Below, in pieces: positions 1 through 12,453 of a DNA stretch of 12,453 bases. Made by a program: the position numbers and the translations under genes. The DNA is from a virus. Lineage: Duplodnaviria; Heunggongvirae; Uroviricota; Caudoviricetes. The notes below the pieces were generated by a model that was not told the origin of the DNA, made no database searches, and saw only the letters and a program-made list of their open reading frames with translations. Location of the stretch: the IMG/VR virus record IMGVR_UViG_2526164669_000031. One strand, given 5' to 3'. Each line of letters starts with the position of its first letter. Position 1 is the first letter of the stretch.

Positions 1-1260
1 ATGAAGCTCAACGCCAGACAGGTCGAGACCGCAAAGCCAAAAGACAAAACCTACAAAATGGCCGATGGTGGTGGTTTGTATCTTGAGGTTTCGGCCAAAG
101 GTTCCAAATACTGGCGCATGAAATACAGACGTCCCTCTGACAAAAAAGAGGATCGTCTCGCCTTTGGTGTTTGGCCTACTGTGACGCTTGCTCAGGCAAG
201 AGCAAAACGCGATGAAGCTAAAAAGCTTTTAGTACAGGGCATAGACCCAAAAGTCGTACAAAAAGAAGCTCAGGCCGAGAATTCGGGGGCATATACTTTT
301 GAAACTATCGCCCGAGAATGGCATGCCAGTAACAAGCGCTGGAGTGAAGACCATCGAGCGCGCGTTCTTCGCTATCTTGAGCTTTATATCTTCCCTCATA
401 TCGGTTCGTCCGACATTCGGCAGCTTAAAACCAGCCACCTGTTAGCCCCGATTAAAAAAGTTGATGCCAGTGGCAAACACGATGTCGCTCAGCGCCTGCA
501 ACAGCGCGTCACAGCCATTATGCGTTATGCCGTACAGAACGATTACATCGACTCAAATCCAGCCAGCGATATGGCTGGTGCACTATCGACAACCAAAGCG
601 CGCCATTATCCTGCTTTACCTTCTAGCCGGTTCCCTGAGTTTCTTGCACGTCTTGCTGCATATCGTGGTCGCGTAATGACGCGGATTGCGGTTGAGCTTT
701 CCTTACTAACTTTTGTGCGTTCCAGTGAGTTACGTTTCGCGCGTTGGGATGAGTTTGATTTCGATAAATCTCTCTGGCGAGTACCTGCAAAACGAGAAGA
801 AATTAAAGGAGTGCGTTATTCGTACCGTGGCATGAAGATGAAAGAAGAGCATATCGTTCCGCTTAGTCGGCAAGCGATGATTTTGCTAAACCAGTTAAAG
901 CAGATTAGTGGTGATAAAGAACTGCTTTTTCCGGGGGATCATGACGCAACTAAGGTTATGAGTGAAAATACAGTAAATAGCGCATTGCGTGCGATGGGCT
1001 ATGACACGAAAACCGAAGTTTGCGGGCACGGGTTTAGAACGATGGCGCGTGGAGCATTAGGGGAATCAGGCTTATGGAGTGATGATGCGATTGAACGTCA
1101 GCTAAGTCACTCAGAACGTAATAATGTACGTGCTGCTTATATTCATACATCTGAGCATTTAGACGAAAGGCGTTTAATGATACAGTGGTGGGCAGATTAT
1201 TTAGATAGAAATAAGAAAGAAAGTATTACACCATATGATTTTGCTAGACAACTTAAATAG
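1..1260 (+). CDS. int: Tyrosine recombinase, P4-type integrase
   Basis: 419-aa ORF. The N-terminus (AKPKDKTYKMADGGGLYLEV...KYWRMKYR) is typical of P4-family integrase arm-binding domains. The C-terminus has HGFR and RAAYIH motifs consistent with the tyrosine recombinase catalytic H-x-x-R and Y. ATG at position 1, stop TAG at 1258-1260. Confidence 0.9.
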   Translation: MKLNARQVETAKPKDKTYKMADGGGLYLEVSAKGSKYWRMKYRRPSDKKEDRLAFGVWPTVTLAQARAKRDEAKKLLVQGIDPKVVQKEAQAENSGAYTFETIAREWHASNKRWSEDHRARVLRYLELYIFPHIGSSDIRQLKTSHLLAPIKKVDASGKHDVAQRLQQRVTAIMRYAVQNDYIDSNPASDMAGALSTTKARHYPALPSSRFPEFLARLAAYRGRVMTRIAVELSLLTFVRSSELRFARWDEFDFDKSLWRVPAKREEIKGVRYSYRGMKMKEEHIVPLSRQAMILLNQLKQISGDKELLFPGDHDATKVMSENTVNSALRAMGYDTKTEVCGHGFRTMARGALGESGLWSDDAIERQLSHSERNNVRAAYIHTSEHLDERRLMIQWWADYLDRNKKESITPYDFARQLK

Positions 1261-1314: not shown

Positions 1315-1899
1315 CTAATCATTCACATCAAGAGTTAAGAGTGCGTGCATTCTTTTAACAATCATAATGATATTCAAAATTAAATGTACGCAAACATATA
1401 TTATGAGTGGGCATAAAAAATAGTATAACACATTTAATTTTAGAGTTGTGTTTATTATGCTGACATAATATTCATGTGTTTTGCCGTAAAAGAATCCTGA
1501 TTGATTGACAGGAAACAGTGATACTATAAAACACAACACGACTAACAAAACTCCACATAAAATTGAATAACAAATGTTATAATAAAGTTCAGTGAGTAAT
1601 GCTTTCTTTGATTCATAGAATGTATCAATATCTTTTCTTTGTCTTATTTTTGATTCTTGATCATATACTAAAACAAGAACGCTAAGCAGTAATGCTGTTA
1701 GTATTGCACTGAAATTAACTAATAATGATATTAAATCTTTTGTTATACCACTTCCTAGGAGTGAGAATGCGGCAGAAATAATAAATGGTAGTATTATGAA
1801 TGTAAATATATCCCATAAACTGATCTTATTAGTGTCAGCATTTTTTAAAGTTCTGAAGTGGCCTATAAGAACTTCGCATATATTTATCTTTGAACTCAT
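1315..1899 (-). CDS. Hypothetical integral membrane protein (194 aa, about 4 predicted TM helices); second gene of the AT-rich cargo cassette
   Basis: Four hydrophobic segments of about 20-25 aa (approx. residues 28-50, 56-78, 105-128, 155-180) separated by charged loops. The ATG at 1899..1897 overlaps the upstream gene's stop as TAATG. An SD-like AAGGAGAG lies 5-6 nt upstream. Stop TAG at 1317..1315. Visibly AT-rich relative to the P4 backbone. Confidence 0.7.
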   Translation of the reverse strand: MSSKINICEVLIGHFRTLKNADTNKISLWDIFTFIILPFIISAAFSLLGSGITKDLISLLVNFSAILTALLLSVLVLVYDQESKIRQRKDIDTFYESKKALLTELYYNICYSILCGVLLVVLCFIVSLFPVNQSGFFYGKTHEYYVSIINTTLKLNVLYYFLCPLIIYVCVHLILNIIMIVKRMHALLTLDVND

Positions 1900-2825
1900 T
1901 ACGCTCTCCTTATAGTAACACCACGATATAACAACTGTATATATTCCATGATAATAACATCAACAAAATTATTTAGTGATGCTATTTCCGGCATGCCATC
2001 ATAAAAAACAACTTGTTCTTCATCAAATAAAATTTCACATACAGCTCCCCTTGCTGTTGTTCCAATATGAAAAGTTCTTTTTCTGCCATTATCTAATTCA
2101 ACAACTGTTTTTACTGTTTCTCCATATTCTTTAAGGACTTCAACGAGTTGATATTGCTCCGAGCCTCTGGAGAAATAGTCTCGAAGTCTTCCAAGTCCTG
2201 CATTTCGAGGCGGTTTGATAATTAATTCTTGCTCGTTATGGCCTAGCTTTTTGGCTTGTTCAGCTACATCTGTAATGCCATGGAATTTAGTTACCTTGAT
2301 TTCTTTGGTAATGGCATCCATCCATTTTTCAATCGCTTTATCATACGCCAGAGGGTTCATTTGAATCACTAAGTTGGTAATCCTCTTGAAATAATCTGAA
2401 AACAATCTCATAAAAAGAGTTTTTATACCATCACCTCTATAGGTATGTAAAAACGCCATGCCTTCATTTACATCTCTAGGAATATAAAAATGTATGTAAT
2501 ATCTAATTATTTCAGCATTGTTTTTTGTCTTTTCGAAGTCTACATCGCCAGTTTCAATGTTTATTATGTCGGTCTTTGTTCCGTAATATCCAGACTCGAA
2601 CCATCCATATATTTCTCGATTGTTGTTATCGCGTGTAATCTCATTAAAACGAAAAACTTGTTTGGTTTCTTCAGAAAGGATATATTCTTCATTATACTGC
2701 TTAATAAATTCATCGAGTATATCAAGTAAATCATGTTCTCTGATGTTACTCAGTGCTGAATAACGTTGTTCTTTGGCTGCGTTCGGATTGTAGCAGCGGA
2801 AAAGATACGGTGCTAAAGCGTGCAT
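1899..2825 (-). CDS. Hypothetical soluble protein (308 aa), first gene of the AT-rich cargo cassette; function unknown
   Basis: Long uninterrupted ORF in an AT-rich region where random ORFs are rare. Strong SD (AAGGAGAT) 5-6 nt upstream of the ATG at 2825. Translationally coupled to the downstream membrane-protein gene. I see no Walker A or other clear catalytic motif. Confidence 0.75.
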   Translation of the reverse strand: MHALAPYLFRCYNPNAAKEQRYSALSNIREHDLLDILDEFIKQYNEEYILSEETKQVFRFNEITRDNNNREIYGWFESGYYGTKTDIINIETGDVDFEKTKNNAEIIRYYIHFYIPRDVNEGMAFLHTYRGDGIKTLFMRLFSDYFKRITNLVIQMNPLAYDKAIEKWMDAITKEIKVTKFHGITDVAEQAKKLGHNEQELIIKPPRNAGLGRLRDYFSRGSEQYQLVEVLKEYGETVKTVVELDNGRKRTFHIGTTARGAVCEILFDEEQVVFYDGMPEIASLNNFVDVIIMEYIQLLYRGVTIRRA

Positions 2826-3059
2826 TGTTATCTCCTTTTTTAATGGAGATTAGCAACTTATCACTATAAGATCAACGAACGTTCAATATGGAAAGGGATA
2901 ATTCTGCTTGGTATTTTTCTTTTAATAATATTGGGGTGCTTTAGTGCGATATTTTGATGATTAGTGTGTGTTCGGCAGTAGAAGCTATCCATAGGCAGTG
3001 ATGTTTCTGCATATAGAATGTTTTAATTATCAAACACATAATTTTCGATTGCGCGCGCA

Positions 3060-3242: not shown

Positions 3243-3815
3243 TTACACAGACTGACGTGATGCCAGTTGCGCACTTTTACGCGAAAAAATCATGTTCTGC
3301 GCAGGAGTGAATTTTTCACGGCTGTCATCCACCGAAGCCGCGTCAGGCCTGAATCCGATGGTCGTTAAAATGTCGCTATCCTGTGCGGAATAATTAATTT
3401 TTTCCCCCTTCGCAAGCCAGGACAGAAGGGCTTCACGCAGGGCATCTGTGGCACGCTGTATGGCACAGTTTCGGGCAATGGCCGTCAGCTCACTGTAGCC
3501 CATCAGCTCCGCTGCCAGTGCCGCCGCCAGTGCTGTGCCGTGCTGCTGCATAAAATCATTCAGCCGGTCGCGGATGCTGATGTGCTGAACGGCTTCATGC
3601 GAACGAATATAACGACCGGCGGCCTGATTCACCTGCCATTTTCTGACTTCGATAATATTGCGTAATTCGTCCAGGCGACTGACGTTTCTGCCTTCTCCTG
3701 ACAGAAGCCGCAGATATTCCTGTTCGGCCGCAGCCAGCTCATTTTTGCGTTGCAGCCATGCTGCTTTGTTATTCTGACAGGTGTCAAAGGCCTGCTGTAA
3801 GGCTGTGCTTTCCAT
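3243..3815 (-). CDS. psu: Psu (polarity suppression / capsid decoration protein), P4-like
   Basis: 190 aa, the length I recall for P4 Psu. Position is immediately downstream of delta in the sid-delta-psu operon. ATG at 3815..3813. Confidence 0.85.
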   Translation of the reverse strand: MESTALQQAFDTCQNNKAAWLQRKNELAAAEQEYLRLLSGEGRNVSRLDELRNIIEVRKWQVNQAAGRYIRSHEAVQHISIRDRLNDFMQQHGTALAAALAAELMGYSELTAIARNCAIQRATDALREALLSWLAKGEKINYSAQDSDILTTIGFRPDAASVDDSREKFTPAQNMIFSRKSAQLASRQSV

Positions 3816-3888
3816 CGTTATCTCTTTCTCATCATGCTGAAGAATAAAAATACGGTGTGTGGCGACGGCCGGTGTTAACCGGCAGCCC

Positions 3889-4389
3889 TCATTCCAGACG
3901 CAGCGAATATGATTGTGTTTTTAACCGTACTGGCGGCAGTTCCTGTTTTTCATGCAGGCGTTCTGCCAGTTCGTCCGGCGTGACCGGGCGGACAATGAAG
4001 CGGGTGATGGTCTGAAGCGTTTTAAACACCAGACCACAGCCCGGATCCGTGCACACATAAAAACGCTCGGTGACTTCCTGAGACAGACGCCGCGATGTTC
4101 TTGACAGTGCAAGGCCTTTACATCTCCGACAACAATATCCGGTAACAAGCATTCTTTTCGGCCGTTTCATACTGCCGGAGGCCGACGTCAGTGAATCGCG
4201 GTATCTCTGTTTGCCTGAAATGTATTCCATTCCTGAATCTTTACTGTCAGAGAAAAAGCTTTCACTCGCTTCAAATGTCGCAGAGCAATAAATATTCCGG
4301 CACTGTGCAATCATTATCTTGGTGCCATCGTCCATGAAATGTGCGCGACGGGTGTGAGCAACATGTCCACACGACGGGCAGTAAATCAT
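3889..4389 (-). CDS. delta: Delta, late-gene transcriptional activator (tandem Ogr-like zinc-finger domains)
   Basis: 166 aa. Two Cys4 zinc-finger modules are visible (CPSCG...CRNIYC and CCRRC...CTDPGCG). The ATG overlaps the sid stop as ATGA at 4386-4389. Confidence 0.9.
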   Translation of the reverse strand: MIYCPSCGHVAHTRRAHFMDDGTKIMIAQCRNIYCSATFEASESFFSDSKDSGMEYISGKQRYRDSLTSASGSMKRPKRMLVTGYCCRRCKGLALSRTSRRLSQEVTERFYVCTDPGCGLVFKTLQTITRFIVRPVTPDELAERLHEKQELPPVRLKTQSYSLRLE

Positions 4390-5120
4390 GACAGCAGTCC
4401 TCTGGCCTTAAGCTCTGCTCCCTGCTGGTCTATTTTGTCCTGCCACACCTTGCGCTGTGCCGGTGTGCCTGCCACCTCATAATCCATGTGCGGGAGTGTT
4501 GCCGCTGACAGTCCGGCCAGCCGGAGAACCGGCTCGCCGGTGAGGCTGATTTGCATCTGTTTAATTTTCTGTTCCAGCGATGATTTCACCTGCTGCATGA
4601 CAGCCTTATCGGGTGCGACGTAGCCCTGATGGCCGGTGGTGTTGGCGAGCGGATTTTCCTGTACCAGGATTCTCAGATGCATTGCCCGGACAAGCGCCTC
4701 ACAGGTTTCATTCAGGGCGTGTTCCAGCTCATGCTCTGCATACAGACTCAGAAGGTGATGATGTGCCTTCCGGTAGGCGGTGGCCGTGCTGTCACACGCC
4801 CCTTTCAGGCGTTCACGTTCGAAATTCAGCACCACGGCCAGATTGTCATATTCCTGTACCAGCTCCCGGCGTGCCACGCGCTCAATGTGGCGCTGTTTCA
4901 GCTCGTCGCTCAGGACACCACCGGCTGCACGAAAGGCCGTGCGCCAGTCGTCAGCGTCATTTCCGTCGGCCTGCGCCAGCGCATTTTTTTCCTGCTCTGC
5001 CCGTTCAATGGCCGTGACGGTCTCATCCATCAGGCGGGCGTTCTCAAGGTGGGCGGCTCTGGCCTTTTCCAGTTGTGCCAGTGCGGGTTGCAGATATTCA
5101 GGGATGGTGTTGTCAGACAT
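4386..5120 (-). CDS. sid: Sid (capsid size determination external scaffold), P4-like
   Basis: The track ORF 4386..5138 begins with a GTG. The in-frame ATG at 5120..5118 (MSDNTIPEYLQ...) gives 244 aa, the recalled P4 Sid length, and has a GAGGAG SD 7 nt upstream. The protein is coiled-coil rich and is the first gene downstream of the late-promoter motifs. Confidence 0.85.
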   Translation of the reverse strand: MSDNTIPEYLQPALAQLEKARAAHLENARLMDETVTAIERAEQEKNALAQADGNDADDWRTAFRAAGGVLSDELKQRHIERVARRELVQEYDNLAVVLNFERERLKGACDSTATAYRKAHHHLLSLYAEHELEHALNETCEALVRAMHLRILVQENPLANTTGHQGYVAPDKAVMQQVKSSLEQKIKQMQISLTGEPVLRLAGLSAATLPHMDYEVAGTPAQRKVWQDKIDQQGAELKARGLLS

Positions 5121-5154
5121 TTTCCGGCTCCTCGTCACTTCAGGTTAAGAAAAT

Positions 5155-5210
5155 TGTGACGTACACCGGACAACAACACGACGCATTGCAGATGTGCCAG
5201 CCCTGACACA
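5155..5210 (-). promoter_or_regulatory. Psid-like late promoter region with two TGT-N12-ACA activator (Delta/Ogr) sites
   Basis: Exact TGT-N12-ACA dyads at 5155-5172 and 5193-5210. Relative to a minus-strand start near 5146 they would be centred at about -18 and -55, the arrangement I recall for P4 late promoters. The sid ATG is at 5120. Confidence 0.6.
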
Positions 5211-5289
5211 GGAGACTCATCCTCAGACCGGCAAGCCAGGAAAAGGTCGCAGGAAAAACCGGCTTACTGTTTGTTTTTTTATGTTTTAC

Positions 5290-5393
5290 TGTTCACCTCT
5301 GTTCACCTTAATAAAAAAGATAAGTAATACAGTAAGTTAAAGGGTGAACAATCGCAGTAATGACTGTTCACCGTCTGTTCACCACTGTTCACC
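5290..5393. repeat. Iteron cluster (six copies of TGTTCACC/GGTGAACA); putative ori for the alpha protein
   Basis: TGTTCACC at 5290, 5300, 5365, 5376 and 5386, and inverted GGTGAACA at 5343. The same octamer recurs in the crr-like repeats downstream of alpha. The AT-rich tract 5400-5500 is adjacent. Confidence 0.7.
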
Positions 5394-5551
5394 CGTTGAT
5401 GGGCTTTTTATGCTGTTTATTACTGTTTATTTTTATTAATTAACTGAAATAAATAAGAAAAAACAATTTGCATTTCACTATAAAAAATTCCAGGTCCTTC
5501 AGAACCCTTTGAGACCCTTCCAGTCCGGATGGATAAAAAACACACAGCCAT

Positions 5552-5569
5552 TGTAAGGTTGCCGGAACA
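5552..5569 (+). promoter_or_regulatory. PLL-like late promoter activator site (TGT-N12-ACA) upstream of vis
   Basis: Exact TGT-N12-ACA at 5552-5569. It would be centred about 55 nt upstream of a plus-strand start near 5615, leaving a 57-nt leader to the vis ATG at 5672. Confidence 0.5.
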
Positions 5570-5671
5570 AATTCCCCCTGTTGCGTCTGCTGAAAATATT
5601 CACAAAATAAAGCGCTACCCGAAGCCGGACGGACTTATCCGGTGCTGTATGGACATTAACGAGGTAGCCCG

Positions 5672-5938
5672 ATGCAAGCTGTTTTTTCTTCCCCGTCTCC
5701 CGCCCCTGTTACGCCACTGATGCCGCTGCCGGACATCACGCAGGAGCGTTTTTTACGTCTGCCGGAAGTGATGCACCTGTGCGGCCTGTCACGCTCGACC
5801 ATCTATGAACTCATCCGTAAGGGGGAATTTCCGCCGCAGGTGAGTCTTGGCGGTAAAAATGTGGCCTGGCTGCACTCTGAAGTCACCGCATGGATGGCCG
5901 GACGCATTGCCGGACGCAAACGGGGGTACGACGCATGA
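5672..5938 (+). CDS. vis: AlpA/Vis-family small DNA-binding protein (excisionase-like late regulator)
   Basis: 88 aa. The C-terminal two-thirds ([47 protein letters not shown]) is a typical AlpA-family helix-turn-helix. GAGG SD 7 nt upstream of the ATG at 5672. An alternative in-frame start at 5720 would give 72 aa. Confidence 0.8.
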
Positions 5939-7723: not shown

Positions 7724-10057
7724 ATGAAAATGAACGTAACTGCCACCGTCAGCCATGCGCTCGGCCACTGGCCGCGTATTCTCCCGTCGCTGGGGATTCA
7801 GGTGCTGAAGAACCGTCATCAGCCCTGTCCGGTCTGTGGCGGAAGTGACCGCTTCCGTTTTGATGACAGGGAGGGGCGCGGCACCTGGTACTGCAATCAG
7901 TGTGGTGCCGGTGACGGCCTGAAACTGGTTGAAAAGGTGTTTGGTGTTTCCCCGTCCGACGCGGCCGCAAAGGTGGCTGCCGTGACCGGCTGCCTGCCCC
8001 CGGCTGACCCGGCAGTGACGGCCGCCGCCGGTGCTGAAACAGAAGCCGCCCGGAAGAACGCCGCCGCACTGGCACAAACCCTGATGGCGAAAACCCGTCC
8101 CGGAACCGGTAACGCCTACCTGACCCGCAAGGGCTTTCCCGGCCGGGAATGCCGGATGCTGACCGGCACACACAGAGCCGGTGGCGTGAGCTGGCGCGCC
8201 GGTGACCTTGTGGTGCCACTGTATGACGACAGCGGCGAACTGGTTAACCTTCAGTTAATCAGTGCTGACGGCCGTAAGCGCACCCTGAAAGGCGGACAGG
8301 TCAGGGGCACCTGTCACACCCTTGAAGGACAGAATCAGGCCGGAAAACGTCTGTGGATAGCGGAGGGATATGCGACCGCACTTACCGTACATCACCTGAC
8401 CGGGGAAACGGTGATGGTGGCGCTTTCTTCCGTGAACCTCCTTTCTCTGGCCAGCCTTGCCCGGCAGAAGCACCCCGCCTGTCAGATTGTCCTTGCTGCT
8501 GACCGTGACCTCAGCGGTGACGGCCAGAAAAAAGCCGCCGCAGCCGCAGATGCGTGTGAAGGTGTTGTTGCCCTGCCACCGGTCTTCGGTGACTGGAATG
8601 ATGCCTTCACGCAGTACGGCGGGGAGGCCACCCGTAAGGCCATTTATGATGCCATCCGGCCACCGGCTGAAAGCCCGTTCGACACCATGAGCGAAGCGGA
8701 GTTTTCCGCCATGAGTACCAGCGAAAAGGCCATGCGTATCTATGAGCATTACGGCGAGGCGCTCGCGGTCGATGCCAACGGCCAGCTTCTGTCCCGCTAT
8801 GAAAATGGTGTCTGGAAGGTGCTGCCGCCACAGGACTTTGCCCGGGATGTGGCCGGGCTGTTTCAGCGGCTGCGTGCGCCGTTCTCCTCCGGGAAGGTGG
8901 CCTCCGTGGTGGACACCCTGAAGCTGATTATTCCGCAACAGGAAGCCCCCTCCCGCCGCCTGATTGGCTTTCGTAACGGCGTGCTCGACACGCAGAACGG
9001 TACGTTCCACCCGCACAGTCCGTCACACTGGATGCGCACCCTGTGCGATGTGGATTTCACCCCGCCGGTGGAAGGGGAAACGCTGGAAACCCACGCCCCC
9101 GCGTTCTGGCGCTGGCTTGACCGTGCTGCCGGTGGTCGTGCGGAAAAACGCGACGTGATTCTGGCCGCACTGTTTATGGTGCTGGCAAACCGCTACGACT
9201 GGCAGCTCTTTCTGGAGGTGACCGGTCCCGGCGGCAGCGGCAAAAGTATCATGGCCGAAATAGCCACCCTGCTGGCCGGGGAGGATAACGCCACGTCGGC
9301 CACCATCGAGACGCTGGAATCCCCGCGTGAACGTGCCGCGTTAACTGGCTTCTCACTGATACGCCTGCCGGACCAGGAAAAATGGAGCGGCGACGGTGCC
9401 GGACTCAAGGCCATCACCGGCGGCGATGCGGTGTCCGTTGACCCGAAATACCGGGATGCGTACTCCACGCACATCCCGGCGGTGATTCTGGCCGTGAACA
9501 ATAACCCGATGCGCTTCACCGACCGCAGCGGCGGCGTGTCACGCCGGCGGGTGATTATTCACTTCCCGGAACAGATAGCCCCGCAGGAGCGCGACCCGCA
9601 GCTTAAGGACAAAATCACCCGCGAGCTGGCGGTCATCGTGCGTCACCTGATGCAGAAATTCAGCGACCCGATGCTCGCCCGGTCACTGCTTCAGTCCCAG
9701 CAGAACTCAGACGAGGCACGGAACATCAAACGGGATGCCGACCCGACGTTTGATTTTATCGGCTATCTGGAAACCCTGCCGCAGACCAGCGGCATGTATA
9801 TGGGGAACGCCAGTATCATCCCGCGTAATTACCGTAAATACCTCTATCACGCCTATCTGGCCTACATGGAGGCAAACGGCTACCGGAATGTACTCAGTCT
9901 GAAAATGTTCGGGCTGGGGCTGCCGGTGATGCTGAAGGAATACGGACTGAATTACGAGAAGCGCCATACCAAACAGGGGATACAGACCAACCTGACGCTG
10001 AAAGAGGAAAGCTACGGCGACTGGCTGCCAAAATGTGACGACCCTGCAACAACCTGA
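7724..10057 (+). CDS. alpha: Alpha protein: primase-helicase with origin-binding domain
   Basis: 777 aa, the recalled length of P4 alpha. N-terminal zinc-binding primase motif (CPVCGGSDRFRFDDREGRGTWYCNQCGAG), a TOPRIM-like segment (IAEGYATAL...VLAADRD) and a Walker A motif (GPGGSGKS, nt about 9226-9249). SD GAAGGAGA at 7708-7715. Confidence 0.95.
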   Translation: MKMNVTATVSHALGHWPRILPSLGIQVLKNRHQPCPVCGGSDRFRFDDREGRGTWYCNQCGAGDGLKLVEKVFGVSPSDAAAKVAAVTGCLPPADPAVTAAAGAETEAARKNAAALAQTLMAKTRPGTGNAYLTRKGFPGRECRMLTGTHRAGGVSWRAGDLVVPLYDDSGELVNLQLISADGRKRTLKGGQVRGTCHTLEGQNQAGKRLWIAEGYATALTVHHLTGETVMVALSSVNLLSLASLARQKHPACQIVLAADRDLSGDGQKKAAAAADACEGVVALPPVFGDWNDAFTQYGGEATRKAIYDAIRPPAESPFDTMSEAEFSAMSTSEKAMRIYEHYGEALAVDANGQLLSRYENGVWKVLPPQDFARDVAGLFQRLRAPFSSGKVASVVDTLKLIIPQQEAPSRRLIGFRNGVLDTQNGTFHPHSPSHWMRTLCDVDFTPPVEGETLETHAPAFWRWLDRAAGGRAEKRDVILAALFMVLANRYDWQLFLEVTGPGGSGKSIMAEIATLLAGEDNATSATIETLESPRERAALTGFSLIRLPDQEKWSGDGAGLKAITGGDAVSVDPKYRDAYSTHIPAVILAVNNNPMRFTDRSGGVSRRRVIIHFPEQIAPQERDPQLKDKITRELAVIVRHLMQKFSDPMLARSLLQSQQNSDEARNIKRDADPTFDFIGYLETLPQTSGMYMGNASIIPRNYRKYLYHAYLAYMEANGYRNVLSLKMFGLGLPVMLKEYGLNYEKRHTKQGIQTNLTLKEESYGDWLPKCDDPATT

Positions 10058-10594: not shown

Positions 10595-10634
10595 TTTGAG
10601 TCCGGCCTTCGCACCTTCGCACCTTCGCACCATC
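10595..10634 (+). other. attR-like remnant of a tRNA 3' end (T-arm and acceptor end) with a triplicated CCTTCGCAC 9-mer
   Basis: TTTGAGTCCGGCCTTCGCACC...CACCA resembles the T-arm and acceptor end of tRNA-Leu (leuX; recalled 3' end ...GTTCGAGTCCGGCCTTCGGCACCA), the known P4 target. CCTTCGCAC occurs three times in tandem (10606-10632). The sequence is in the same orientation as int. Confidence 0.55.
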
Positions 10635-10647
10635 GGAACATCAATAG

Positions 10648-10667
10648 ACGTCAACGGACGTTTTTTT
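10648..10667 (+). terminator. Small hairpin plus T7 run directly after the tRNA-like fragment (possible native tRNA terminator)
   Basis: ACGTC-AACG-GACGT (10648-10661) followed by TTTTTTT. The stem is only 5 bp. Confidence 0.35.
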
Positions 10668-10833
10668 ATGACTGAAATCCGCGCCACACAAGGCTTTTCG
10701 CTATTTTTCGCTCAACCTAAGTCAACCTACATCAACTTACTGATGTGGATACAGCTACAGCTGCGGCTATATCCCGATTCGATAATGTTTGTACCCACAC
10801 AAAACCCTTGAAAGGCTACAAGGCTGAAATTCT

Positions 10834-11019
10834 CTAAACCATAGAGATGATTTTTATGATCCAGTCTTTCTCTTGTTGAGATAGTTCCAGTTTGCTCACT
10901 CGTGTTAAGAAGGTATTGATCACCTGAACATCCGAATTGGTGAGCCTATTTAATAGAGTGGGTGGTATACCTTTACTAACTATTGCTTTGCGGTGACTTT
11001 CGTAGTTTTTATTACTCAT
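10834..11019 (-). CDS. Short ORF (61 aa) in the AT-rich chromosomal flank; possible gene fragment
   Basis: ORF only. It is in a different frame from the adjacent 77-aa ORF, so the pair may be a decayed gene. No recognisable motif. Confidence 0.2.
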   Translation of the reverse strand: MSNKNYESHRKAIVSKGIPPTLLNRLTNSDVQVINTFLTRVSKLELSQQEKDWIIKIISMV

Positions 11020-11084
11020 TGGTGATCCTCAAATATCATTGTATGGCGGCATTGATCGTTTCCAGCAACCTTTACTTACTCACT

Positions 11085-11318
11085 TCAAACTGCATCCTCG
11101 TAGACTGTTCCACTACAATAATCGAAAAGGCGTGGATGTCCATTCAGGTATCCCGCTAATACGTATAGCAATAACAATGGCTTATGCGGCGCGCGCTGTT
11201 CACCCTTGTGCCAGATTTTTATATTGGCAATTGCCTGCTGTAGCGATTTACTGGAAGCCATTGATATCCCTGGCAGTGAAATAATTGCGATCATGCTCGC
11301 AAATTTTCGGCTGTTCAA
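11085..11318 (-). CDS. Short ORF (77 aa) in the chromosomal flank; possible gene fragment or pseudogene
   Basis: ORF only. It sits downstream of and on the same strand as the nanS-like gene, in an AT-rich stretch. Confidence 0.25.
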   Translation of the reverse strand: MNSRKFASMIAIISLPGISMASSKSLQQAIANIKIWHKGEQRAPHKPLLLLYVLAGYLNGHPRLFDYCSGTVYEDAV

Positions 11319-11472
11319 GCCTGCAAGTGAAGATATATTACTTTGATCTCATTTGTTTTTTTGCTGCCTGTGTACCCTAATTGCCATGCGATGCTGCACC
11401 GACGCTAACCACCGTTTACGCCGGAGGAGTTAAAAGCGTTGATGGATGCGAATAAATCAAATTAATGAACGC

Positions 11473-12453
11473 TCACTTTTCGCCCCAAAACTGCAAAATT
11501 GCTTCTACAAACCTGTCAGAAATAATCCCCCGACGGGCTGCCGCGCTGAAATGACTGCTTCGCAGTGCCGTCGTCCAGTTCTCCGGTGACCGGTACGCTG
11601 AACCGTAATATCCCGTGCTTAAATCGTCCGGGTCTTCATCAGGCGCGTTCGTCAGTCCTCTTTCACCTTGTTGCTGGAAGTCGACGAAAATAATATTGGC
11701 TAAAACATTATTTTGATAATTGCCATAAATAACTTCATACGCATGAGGGAAATTTTCTTTCCAGTACCAGGTGGTATCGCCGCAAAACCACGGCGCGTCA
11801 GTAATATTATTAAGCTGAGAATGGTATTGTTTTAGATCCCTACGAAAGGCTTCAATCATATGATTAAAGTGTTGAGGGTGTGACGCGTAGTCACTGGTCA
11901 TTAAGTCAAATTCGCCTTGCATCCAGCATACGCCGAGGAATTTGTTCTGCGGATTTTTTGCCAGTGCGGCTCGCGTTCTGCTGACTAAATCCTGGTACAG
12001 CGGAGTATCCGTTCCCCAACGACAAGCATCATGGCTGGCTCCGTGCCGTTCTGAATATGTCCCTTCGCTGCCCGCGGTAAAAGCCGATCCGCCACGGCAA
12101 CATGGAACGATGAGAACCCCTGCATTATCAGGAATAAAGGGTAGTAATTTCCGTGCAATATGCAGTGCCTGGCCAACGGTGCCGTACTGTGTTTGATGAT
12201 TCGTTGCCAGAGGATGGTGATAACCCTGCATATCCTGAACATCGTGTGGGCAGTGAGTCAGTGGAATAATGTCGTTAAAGTGACATGACGGGCCTCCGGG
12301 ATGCGTATGCGCAAATCTCGCTAATTGTTTAATTCTGGGATGAGGCGCATCTTCCCTGTCCGGTAATGGCAGTCCTTCGCCATACGCCATGGCATTAGAC
12401 TGACCAGCAACGGTAAGAACATAGTAATAATCGGGCGATATTATTGCGTTCAT
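11473..12453 (-). CDS. nanS: Sialate O-acetylesterase (SGNH/SASA-family), NanS-like; the start codon is at the window edge
   Basis: 326 aa. An N-terminal GQSN(A)MAYGEG motif is characteristic of SGNH/SASA esterases. Length and sequence are consistent with E. coli NanS (YjhS) as I recall it. ATG at 12453..12451. Confidence 0.7.
   Translation of the reverse strand: MNAIISPDYYYVLTVAGQSNAMAYGEGLPLPDREDAPHPRIKQLARFAHTHPGGPSCHFNDIIPLTHCPHDVQDMQGYHHPLATNHQTQYGTVGQALHIARKLLPFIPDNAGVLIVPCCRGGSAFTAGSEGTYSERHGASHDACRWGTDTPLYQDLVSRTRAALAKNPQNKFLGVCWMQGEFDLMTSDYASHPQHFNHMIEAFRRDLKQYHSQLNNITDAPWFCGDTTWYWKENFPHAYEVIYGNYQNNVLANIIFVDFQQQGERGLTNAPDEDPDDLSTGYYGSAYRSPENWTTALRSSHFSAAARRGIISDRFVEAILQFWGEK

Follow-up and report, generated by a model that had tools for sequence, protein, structure and literature searches.

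Two probable divergent late promoters with predicted Ogr/Delta activator dyads in the sid-vis intergenic region of a P4-type satellite prophage

The identity of the window (the whole stretch of DNA analysed here, 12,453 nucleotides) was read from its ORF layout and from database matches. By these, it is a P4-type satellite prophage. Phage P4 (X51522) matches it at 97% identity over 70% of the window length, and the Sid, Delta, Psu, and Vis (ORF88) proteins are 98.4%, 98.2%, 98.9%, and 98.9% identical to those of P4, with Alpha falling within 98.2-98.9%. As listed in Table 1, the sid, delta, and psu genes run leftward from a long intergenic region and the vis (orf88) gene runs rightward, and the flanking genes are the same in P4. 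The two accessory ORFs occupy a site of variable accessory (defence-hotspot) genes in P4-like elements. The end of the window (10619-12453) is not covered by the P4 match; presumably it is flanking host DNA beyond attR.

Positions 5000-5800 of the window are 94% identical to P4 8902-9703 over 801 bp. Judged from the sequence, the sid-vis intergenic region is orthologous to the Psid-ori-PLL region of P4. The P4 record X51522 annotates the replication origin between sid and orf88, with type-1 and type-2 repeats, and it was found that all six type-1 iterons are identical between the window and P4. One patch of the intergenic region (5486-5535) has strongly diverged from P4, and it is the only one; the sequence is near-identical on both sides of it.

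Table 1. Genes and regulatory features of the window, with positions counted from its first letter.
Feature	Position	Strand	Remarks
int	1-1260	+	
Two accessory ORFs, between int and the cos/psu interval	1315-2825	-	P4 counterpart absent
psu	3243-3815	-	Pfam Psu match
delta	3889-4389	-	Pfam Ogr_Delta match
sid	4386-5120	-	ATG at 5120
sid-vis intergenic region			551 bp
Psid -10 hexamer CACAAT	5153-5158	-	Position conserved as CAGAAT/CACAAT family-wide
Psid proximal dyad	5155-5172	-	TGTCCGGTGTACGTCACA on the sid strand; centre at about -17.5 from the predicted start; overlaps the -10 hexamer; identical to P4 9531-9548
Psid distal activator dyad (putative)	5193-5210	-	TGTGTCAGGGCTGGCACA on the sid strand; centre at about -55.5 from the predicted start; 100% identical to P4 9493-9510
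P4 replication origin type-1 iterons, six copies of TGTTCACC	5290, 5300, 5343 (reversed), 5366, 5377, 5387 (span 5290-5394)		Between the promoters; 'ori type 1 repeat' in X51522
Variable cassette	5486-5535	-	Immediately upstream of the PLL dyad; CTGGAAGGG and CTCAAAGGG at 5505-5523
PLL activator dyad (putative)	5552-5569	+	TGTAAGGTTGCCGGAACA; centre at about -54.5 from the predicted start
PLL -10 hexamer CAAAAT	5603-5608	+	CAAAAT/CACAAT/CATAAT family-wide
vis (orf88)	5672-5938	+	Pfam Phage_AlpA match; first gene downstream of PLL
Ash-family ORF, orf151, orf106	After vis, before alpha		Ash confirmed by Pfam
alpha	7724-10057	+	

The first-pass annotation had placed three exact TGT-N12-ACA dyads in this intergenic region and had reckoned that about three would occur by chance across the whole window. 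I scanned the whole window for the motif. Exact dyads were found at just the three positions claimed, all of them inside the intergenic region, and at four further places, starting at 3019, 6046, 7249, and 10034. The chance estimate was also sound, since 3.08 dyads are expected against the seven found; at least seven were reached in 8 of 200 shuffles. The density is far from equal along the window: 5.4 dyads per kb within the intergenic region and 0.34 per kb elsewhere. When the intergenic region itself was shuffled with its dinucleotides kept, the mean was 0.23 dyads and the probability of three or more was 0.0016. In whole-window shuffles, the probability that any 551-bp span holds at least three was 0.02. 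The clustering of the three dyads is non-random.

Could the three dyads nevertheless be a chance cluster in a TGT-rich and AT-rich intergenic region, with no regulatory role? The excess over the whole window is modest, as the counts above show, and the TGTTCACC iterons do raise the local frequency of TGT. This effect is already covered by the local test, because those shuffles were made from the same region, and the three dyads stand out even so. A chance cluster would also leave unexplained that the half-sites are conserved where the spacers vary, that the dyads keep a constant distance to conserved -10 hexamers, and that their sequences, four bases of the PLL spacer apart, are identical to those of characterised P4 promoters. 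It is thus a very improbable explanation.

All three intergenic dyads are retained in P4 as exact dyads. As for the dyads outside the region, P4 has no dyad at the positions equivalent to 6046 and 7249, and the equivalent of 3019 is absent from P4. The remaining one (10034-10051) lies within the last codons of alpha, and P4 4642-4659 retains it with one change in the spacer. I rejected it as a promoter element: it is coding sequence, and what follows is the alpha terminator (and crr). It is probably a chance match held in place by coding constraint.

How well does exact matching identify functional sites? The late promoters of phage P2 carry a TGT-N12-ACA consensus and depend on Ogr, a zinc-finger protein with a CX2CX22CX4C motif (PMC3931495). 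In the P2 RefSeq record, PP/PO, PV, and PF each have an annotated activator binding site and mapped starts, and the site centres are 55-58 nt from the starts. It was revealed that none of these annotated sites (NC_001895 3057-3087, 10239-10266, and 17555-17583) is an exact match; PO/PP and PF read TGT-N12-CCA, and PV reads TGT-N11-ACA. P2 has five exact TGT-N12-ACA sequences, and not one of the five is at an annotated late promoter. Thus, the count of exact matches is a poor classifier, and an exact match is not even necessary, since the annotated sites of P2 lack it. Given the P2 result, exact-match density was rejected as a functional test, and I relied on conservation and geometry. By the same comparison, the P4 sites come unusually near to the idealised consensus.

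The starts of Psid and PLL are not annotated in the P4 GenBank records. I placed predicted starts about 7 nt downstream of the CAnAAT -10 hexamers, which are conserved throughout the family. On this basis, Psid would start at A5146 on the minus strand, which leaves 26 nt to the sid ATG, and PLL near 5615 (about 5614-5617) on the plus strand, from where a conserved leader runs to the vis ATG. The spacing proposed in the first-pass annotation, about -18 and -55 for Psid and -55 for PLL, was reproduced with these predicted starts (Table 1), and it matches the distances given in the P2 record. A consensus scan of 5050-5750 found no sigma-70 consensus promoter; the CAnAAT -10 hexamers are all that is present, as would suit promoters without a -35 element that depend on an activator. 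An old '-10 consensus' annotated in the P4 record X02534 was disregarded; it falls inside the distal Psid dyad.

Is the Psid arrangement conserved? The window and P4 are 100% identical in both Psid dyads, in the -10 hexamer, in the leader, and at the sid start. I compared ten further variants from E. coli and metagenomes, in a set counted as 12 E. coli/P4 variants, and both Psid dyads are invariant across the set. A search of 5426 complete E. coli genomes found a 76-nt Psid core in 977 of them, with an identity that never falls below 95%. The comparison was then widened to 15 loci from Klebsiella, Raoultella, Enterobacter, Citrobacter, Kluyvera, and others, together with two distant E. coli elements. 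One of the 15 loci is nearly identical to the window, while the other 14 are divergent, with Sid proteins 58-65% identical. Every sid-upstream sequence that was examined has the distal Psid dyad as an exact TGT-N12-ACA, 85-93 nt ahead of the sid ATG. Its family consensus is TGTGCCA-N4-TGCCACA, in which TGT and ACA are invariant and the central four bases vary freely, in line with purifying selection on the half-sites relative to the spacer. On these alignments, fixed half-sites around a free spacer are the pattern expected of a dimeric or tandem DNA-binding protein. Among the divergent P4-like elements compared, the distal Psid dyad is the only one that is exact family-wide. A further block farther upstream (5226-5252), which reads GCGACCTTTTCCTGGCTTGCCGG on the sid strand, is kept in all the divergent P4-like elements; its distance from the predicted start of Psid is about 80-105 bp. 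Its consensus is GACCTTTCTCTGGCAAGCCGG, and it is neither an origin iteron nor a dyad.

The proximal Psid dyad is conserved differently. In distant relatives, its position reads TGT-N12-AGA, and only the P4 clade has the exact dyad. Its ACA is shared with the -10 hexamer. As an independent site, the proximal dyad is less secure by sequence than the distal one. Perhaps, then, only the two dyads near -55 are genuine, and the proximal one is a by-product of the CACAAT hexamer and a conserved TTGTTGT tract, with no separate role. The 3′ half-site does lie inside the -10 hexamer, and the position reads AGA in all the distant P4-like elements because the -10 hexamer there is CAGAAT, so that the exact dyad is limited to the P4 clade. 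Nevertheless, the 5′ half (TTGTTGT) and the 18-bp register are kept family-wide, and the proximal dyad is unchanged in 12 of 12 E. coli/P4 variants. In addition, Julien and Calendar reportedly showed in 1995 that Delta footprints lie at -55 in all six P2/P4 late promoters, with a second site near -18 in Psid. A by-product without a role is unlikely, and I treat the proximal dyad as a candidate second site of Psid.

At PLL, the P4 equivalent of the dyad is TGTAAGACAGCCTGAACA (9133-9150), in which both half-sites are the same and four spacer bases differ. The half-sites are invariant in the 12 E. coli/P4 variants, and the variation falls in the spacer, at positions 7-9 and 13. The distant P4-like elements have TGT-N13-ACA or TGC-N13-GCA here, or a less recognisable site. 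By these alignments, the PLL dyad in its exact form characterises the P4 clade, and selection on half-sites rather than spacer is seen for PLL within that clade only. On reading the window sequence, no second dyad was found near -18 in PLL. The -10 hexamer and the leader are identical to P4. The PLL core was found in 980 complete E. coli genomes and is more variable than the Psid core. The segment from the PLL -10 region through the whole leader to the vis ATG (5590-5671) is almost invariant even where Sid is only about 60% identical. The leader also has a small hairpin, GCCGG...CCGG(T/C). The PLL leader is far more conserved than the activator site upstream of it, which suggests that the leader may have an additional regulatory role.

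A candidate activator is encoded in the element itself. Two stretches of Delta match Pfam Ogr_Delta (E = 5.7e-22), and the protein contains two CX2CX22CX4C zinc-finger motifs, of the C4 type. Delta is a homologue of Ogr, and both proteins promote late gene expression of P2 and P4 (PMC8628076). I propose that Psid and PLL, the divergent late promoters of a P4-type satellite prophage, both lie in the intergenic region and both depend on an activator, a reading to which I assign a probability of about 0.9. P4 orthology, conservation, geometry, and the delta gene all support the divergent Ogr/Delta-dependent promoters of the first-pass annotation. Psid would fire leftward into sid-delta-psu (3243-5120, minus strand) and PLL rightward into vis and the replication operon, with the P4 replication origin located between them. 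Each promoter would lack a -35 element and depend on a zinc-finger activator at a TGT-N12-ACA dyad centred about 55 bp upstream of its start. The activator would be either Ogr of the helper phage or the Delta of the satellite, which would bind the -55 dyads and recruit RNA polymerase to Psid and PLL. The second Psid dyad, at about -18, overlaps the -10 hexamer and may also take part in activation. Since delta sits in the Psid operon, activation of Psid would be self-reinforcing once a helper supplies Ogr.

Might the dyads instead serve replication, through the alpha protein at the origin, or the binding of Vis? They lie on either side of the annotated P4 origin and within the extent of the rep_origin feature, and Vis has been reported to bind near PLL. 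However, the annotated origin repeats differ from the dyads in sequence, being TGTTCACC and 10-bp type-2 repeats, and they lie 80-150 bp away from the dyads. Moreover, the same type of dyad is found at the late promoters of P2, where the P4 origin and Vis are absent. A role in replication or Vis binding in place of Ogr/Delta activation is thus highly improbable, and activation of Psid and PLL remains the preferred reading.

The diverged patch upstream of the PLL dyad deserves separate attention. In P4, the same position is the 'ori type 2 repeat' block. P2 Cox binds cox-boxes, TTAAA(G/C)NC(A/C), in the type-2 block and thereby activates PLL of P4 (PMC3936717; PMC5009727). On its minus strand, the P4 patch carries a pair of exact P2 cox-boxes at a 10-bp spacing, while the cassette of the window (5486-5535) has no P2 cox-box. 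It was found that the window carries CTGGAAGGG and CTCAAAGGG there, on the same strand and in the same phasing as the P4 boxes, so that the content of the two patches is reciprocal, with a box definition that is partly derived from both sequences. The boxes of the cassette resemble the direct repeat CCTAGAA(A/G)GGAC of the WPhi Pe-Pc region. These repeats are distinct from the TATTGGTGAC C operators of WPhi (PMC1904263). The cassette boxes also resemble CTATAAGGGACTGGAAGGG beside the WPhi int gene, a position that corresponds to the annotated Cox site beside the int gene of P2, and a 12-mer, GGACTGGAAGGG, is common to the cassette and the int-proximal region of WPhi. WPhi Cox reportedly binds a direct repeat of 12 nt and fails to activate P4 (PMC5009727).

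I examined the cassette boxes in several ways. For the 19-nt pattern formed by the two boxes, 0.00 matches are expected in the window. Among viral contigs with this pattern, 8 of the 80 loci screened were relevant, namely two phages with a WPhi cox gene and six P4-like satellites, and the rest were mostly chance matches. A weight matrix built from five WPhi boxes has its top window match in the cassette, yet only two boxes pass the threshold, which is suggestive only. BLAST of the variable cassette against phage genomes returned chance matches only. In complete E. coli genomes, three alleles of the cassette were distinguished: the window type in 278 genomes (294 places), the P4 type in 439 (480 places), and a third type in 373 (395 places). 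The places sum to 1169, which is essentially all of the 1170-1174 P4-clade copies. The cassette resembles the P2 Cox-dependent derepression site upstream of P4 PLL in its position relative to PLL, in its strand, and in the 10-bp phasing of its repeats. In contrast to that site, the box here is CTNNAAGGG, which is like the WPhi repeat, and the P2 cox-box is absent. I tentatively suggest, with the odds slightly against it, that the cassette may be an exchangeable helper-sensing element, that this satellite might be derepressed by WPhi-type helpers, which reportedly fail to activate P4, rather than by P2-type helpers, and that the Ogr/Delta dyads would be constant across the alleles. If true, a Cox-response cassette that differs between alleles, next to an activator site that stays constant, could account for the way in which P4-like satellites match themselves to different helper phages.

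What, then, is new at this locus? On the sequence comparisons, the three dyads are the already known and well-studied Ogr/Delta sites of P4 Psid and PLL, so that the assignment is correct but ordinary. The textbook late-promoter architecture of P4 was recovered from raw sequence, in an element that roughly a fifth of complete E. coli genomes carry, and little is new. There are three small refinements: the distal Psid dyad alone stays exact throughout the family, the site at -18 is merged with the -10 hexamer, and exact matching misses the annotated activator sites of P2.

Finally, the locus can be set against two known systems. Psid and PLL resemble the Ogr-dependent PP/PO, PV, and PF promoters of P2 in that the centre of the activator site lies 55-58 nt upstream of the start in P2, close to the distance predicted here, and in that a -35 consensus is absent. 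They also share the left half-site TGT, and TGTGTCA is common to P2 PO/PP and Psid; the activators belong to the same Ogr/Delta zinc-finger family. In contrast, the P2 sites are imperfect (TGT-N12-CCA and TGT-N11-ACA), and one site serves both PP and PO, whereas Psid and PLL, at a distance of about 470 bp, have separate sites. Unlike Psid here, the P2 promoters have no annotated second site at -18. The closest relative is P4 itself, whose Psid and PLL sites (X51522 9493-9510, 9531-9548, and 9133-9150) form the orthologous locus, with the same flanking genes and origin iterons. The window differs from P4 in four spacer bases of the PLL dyad and in the replacement of the 50-bp cassette upstream of it.
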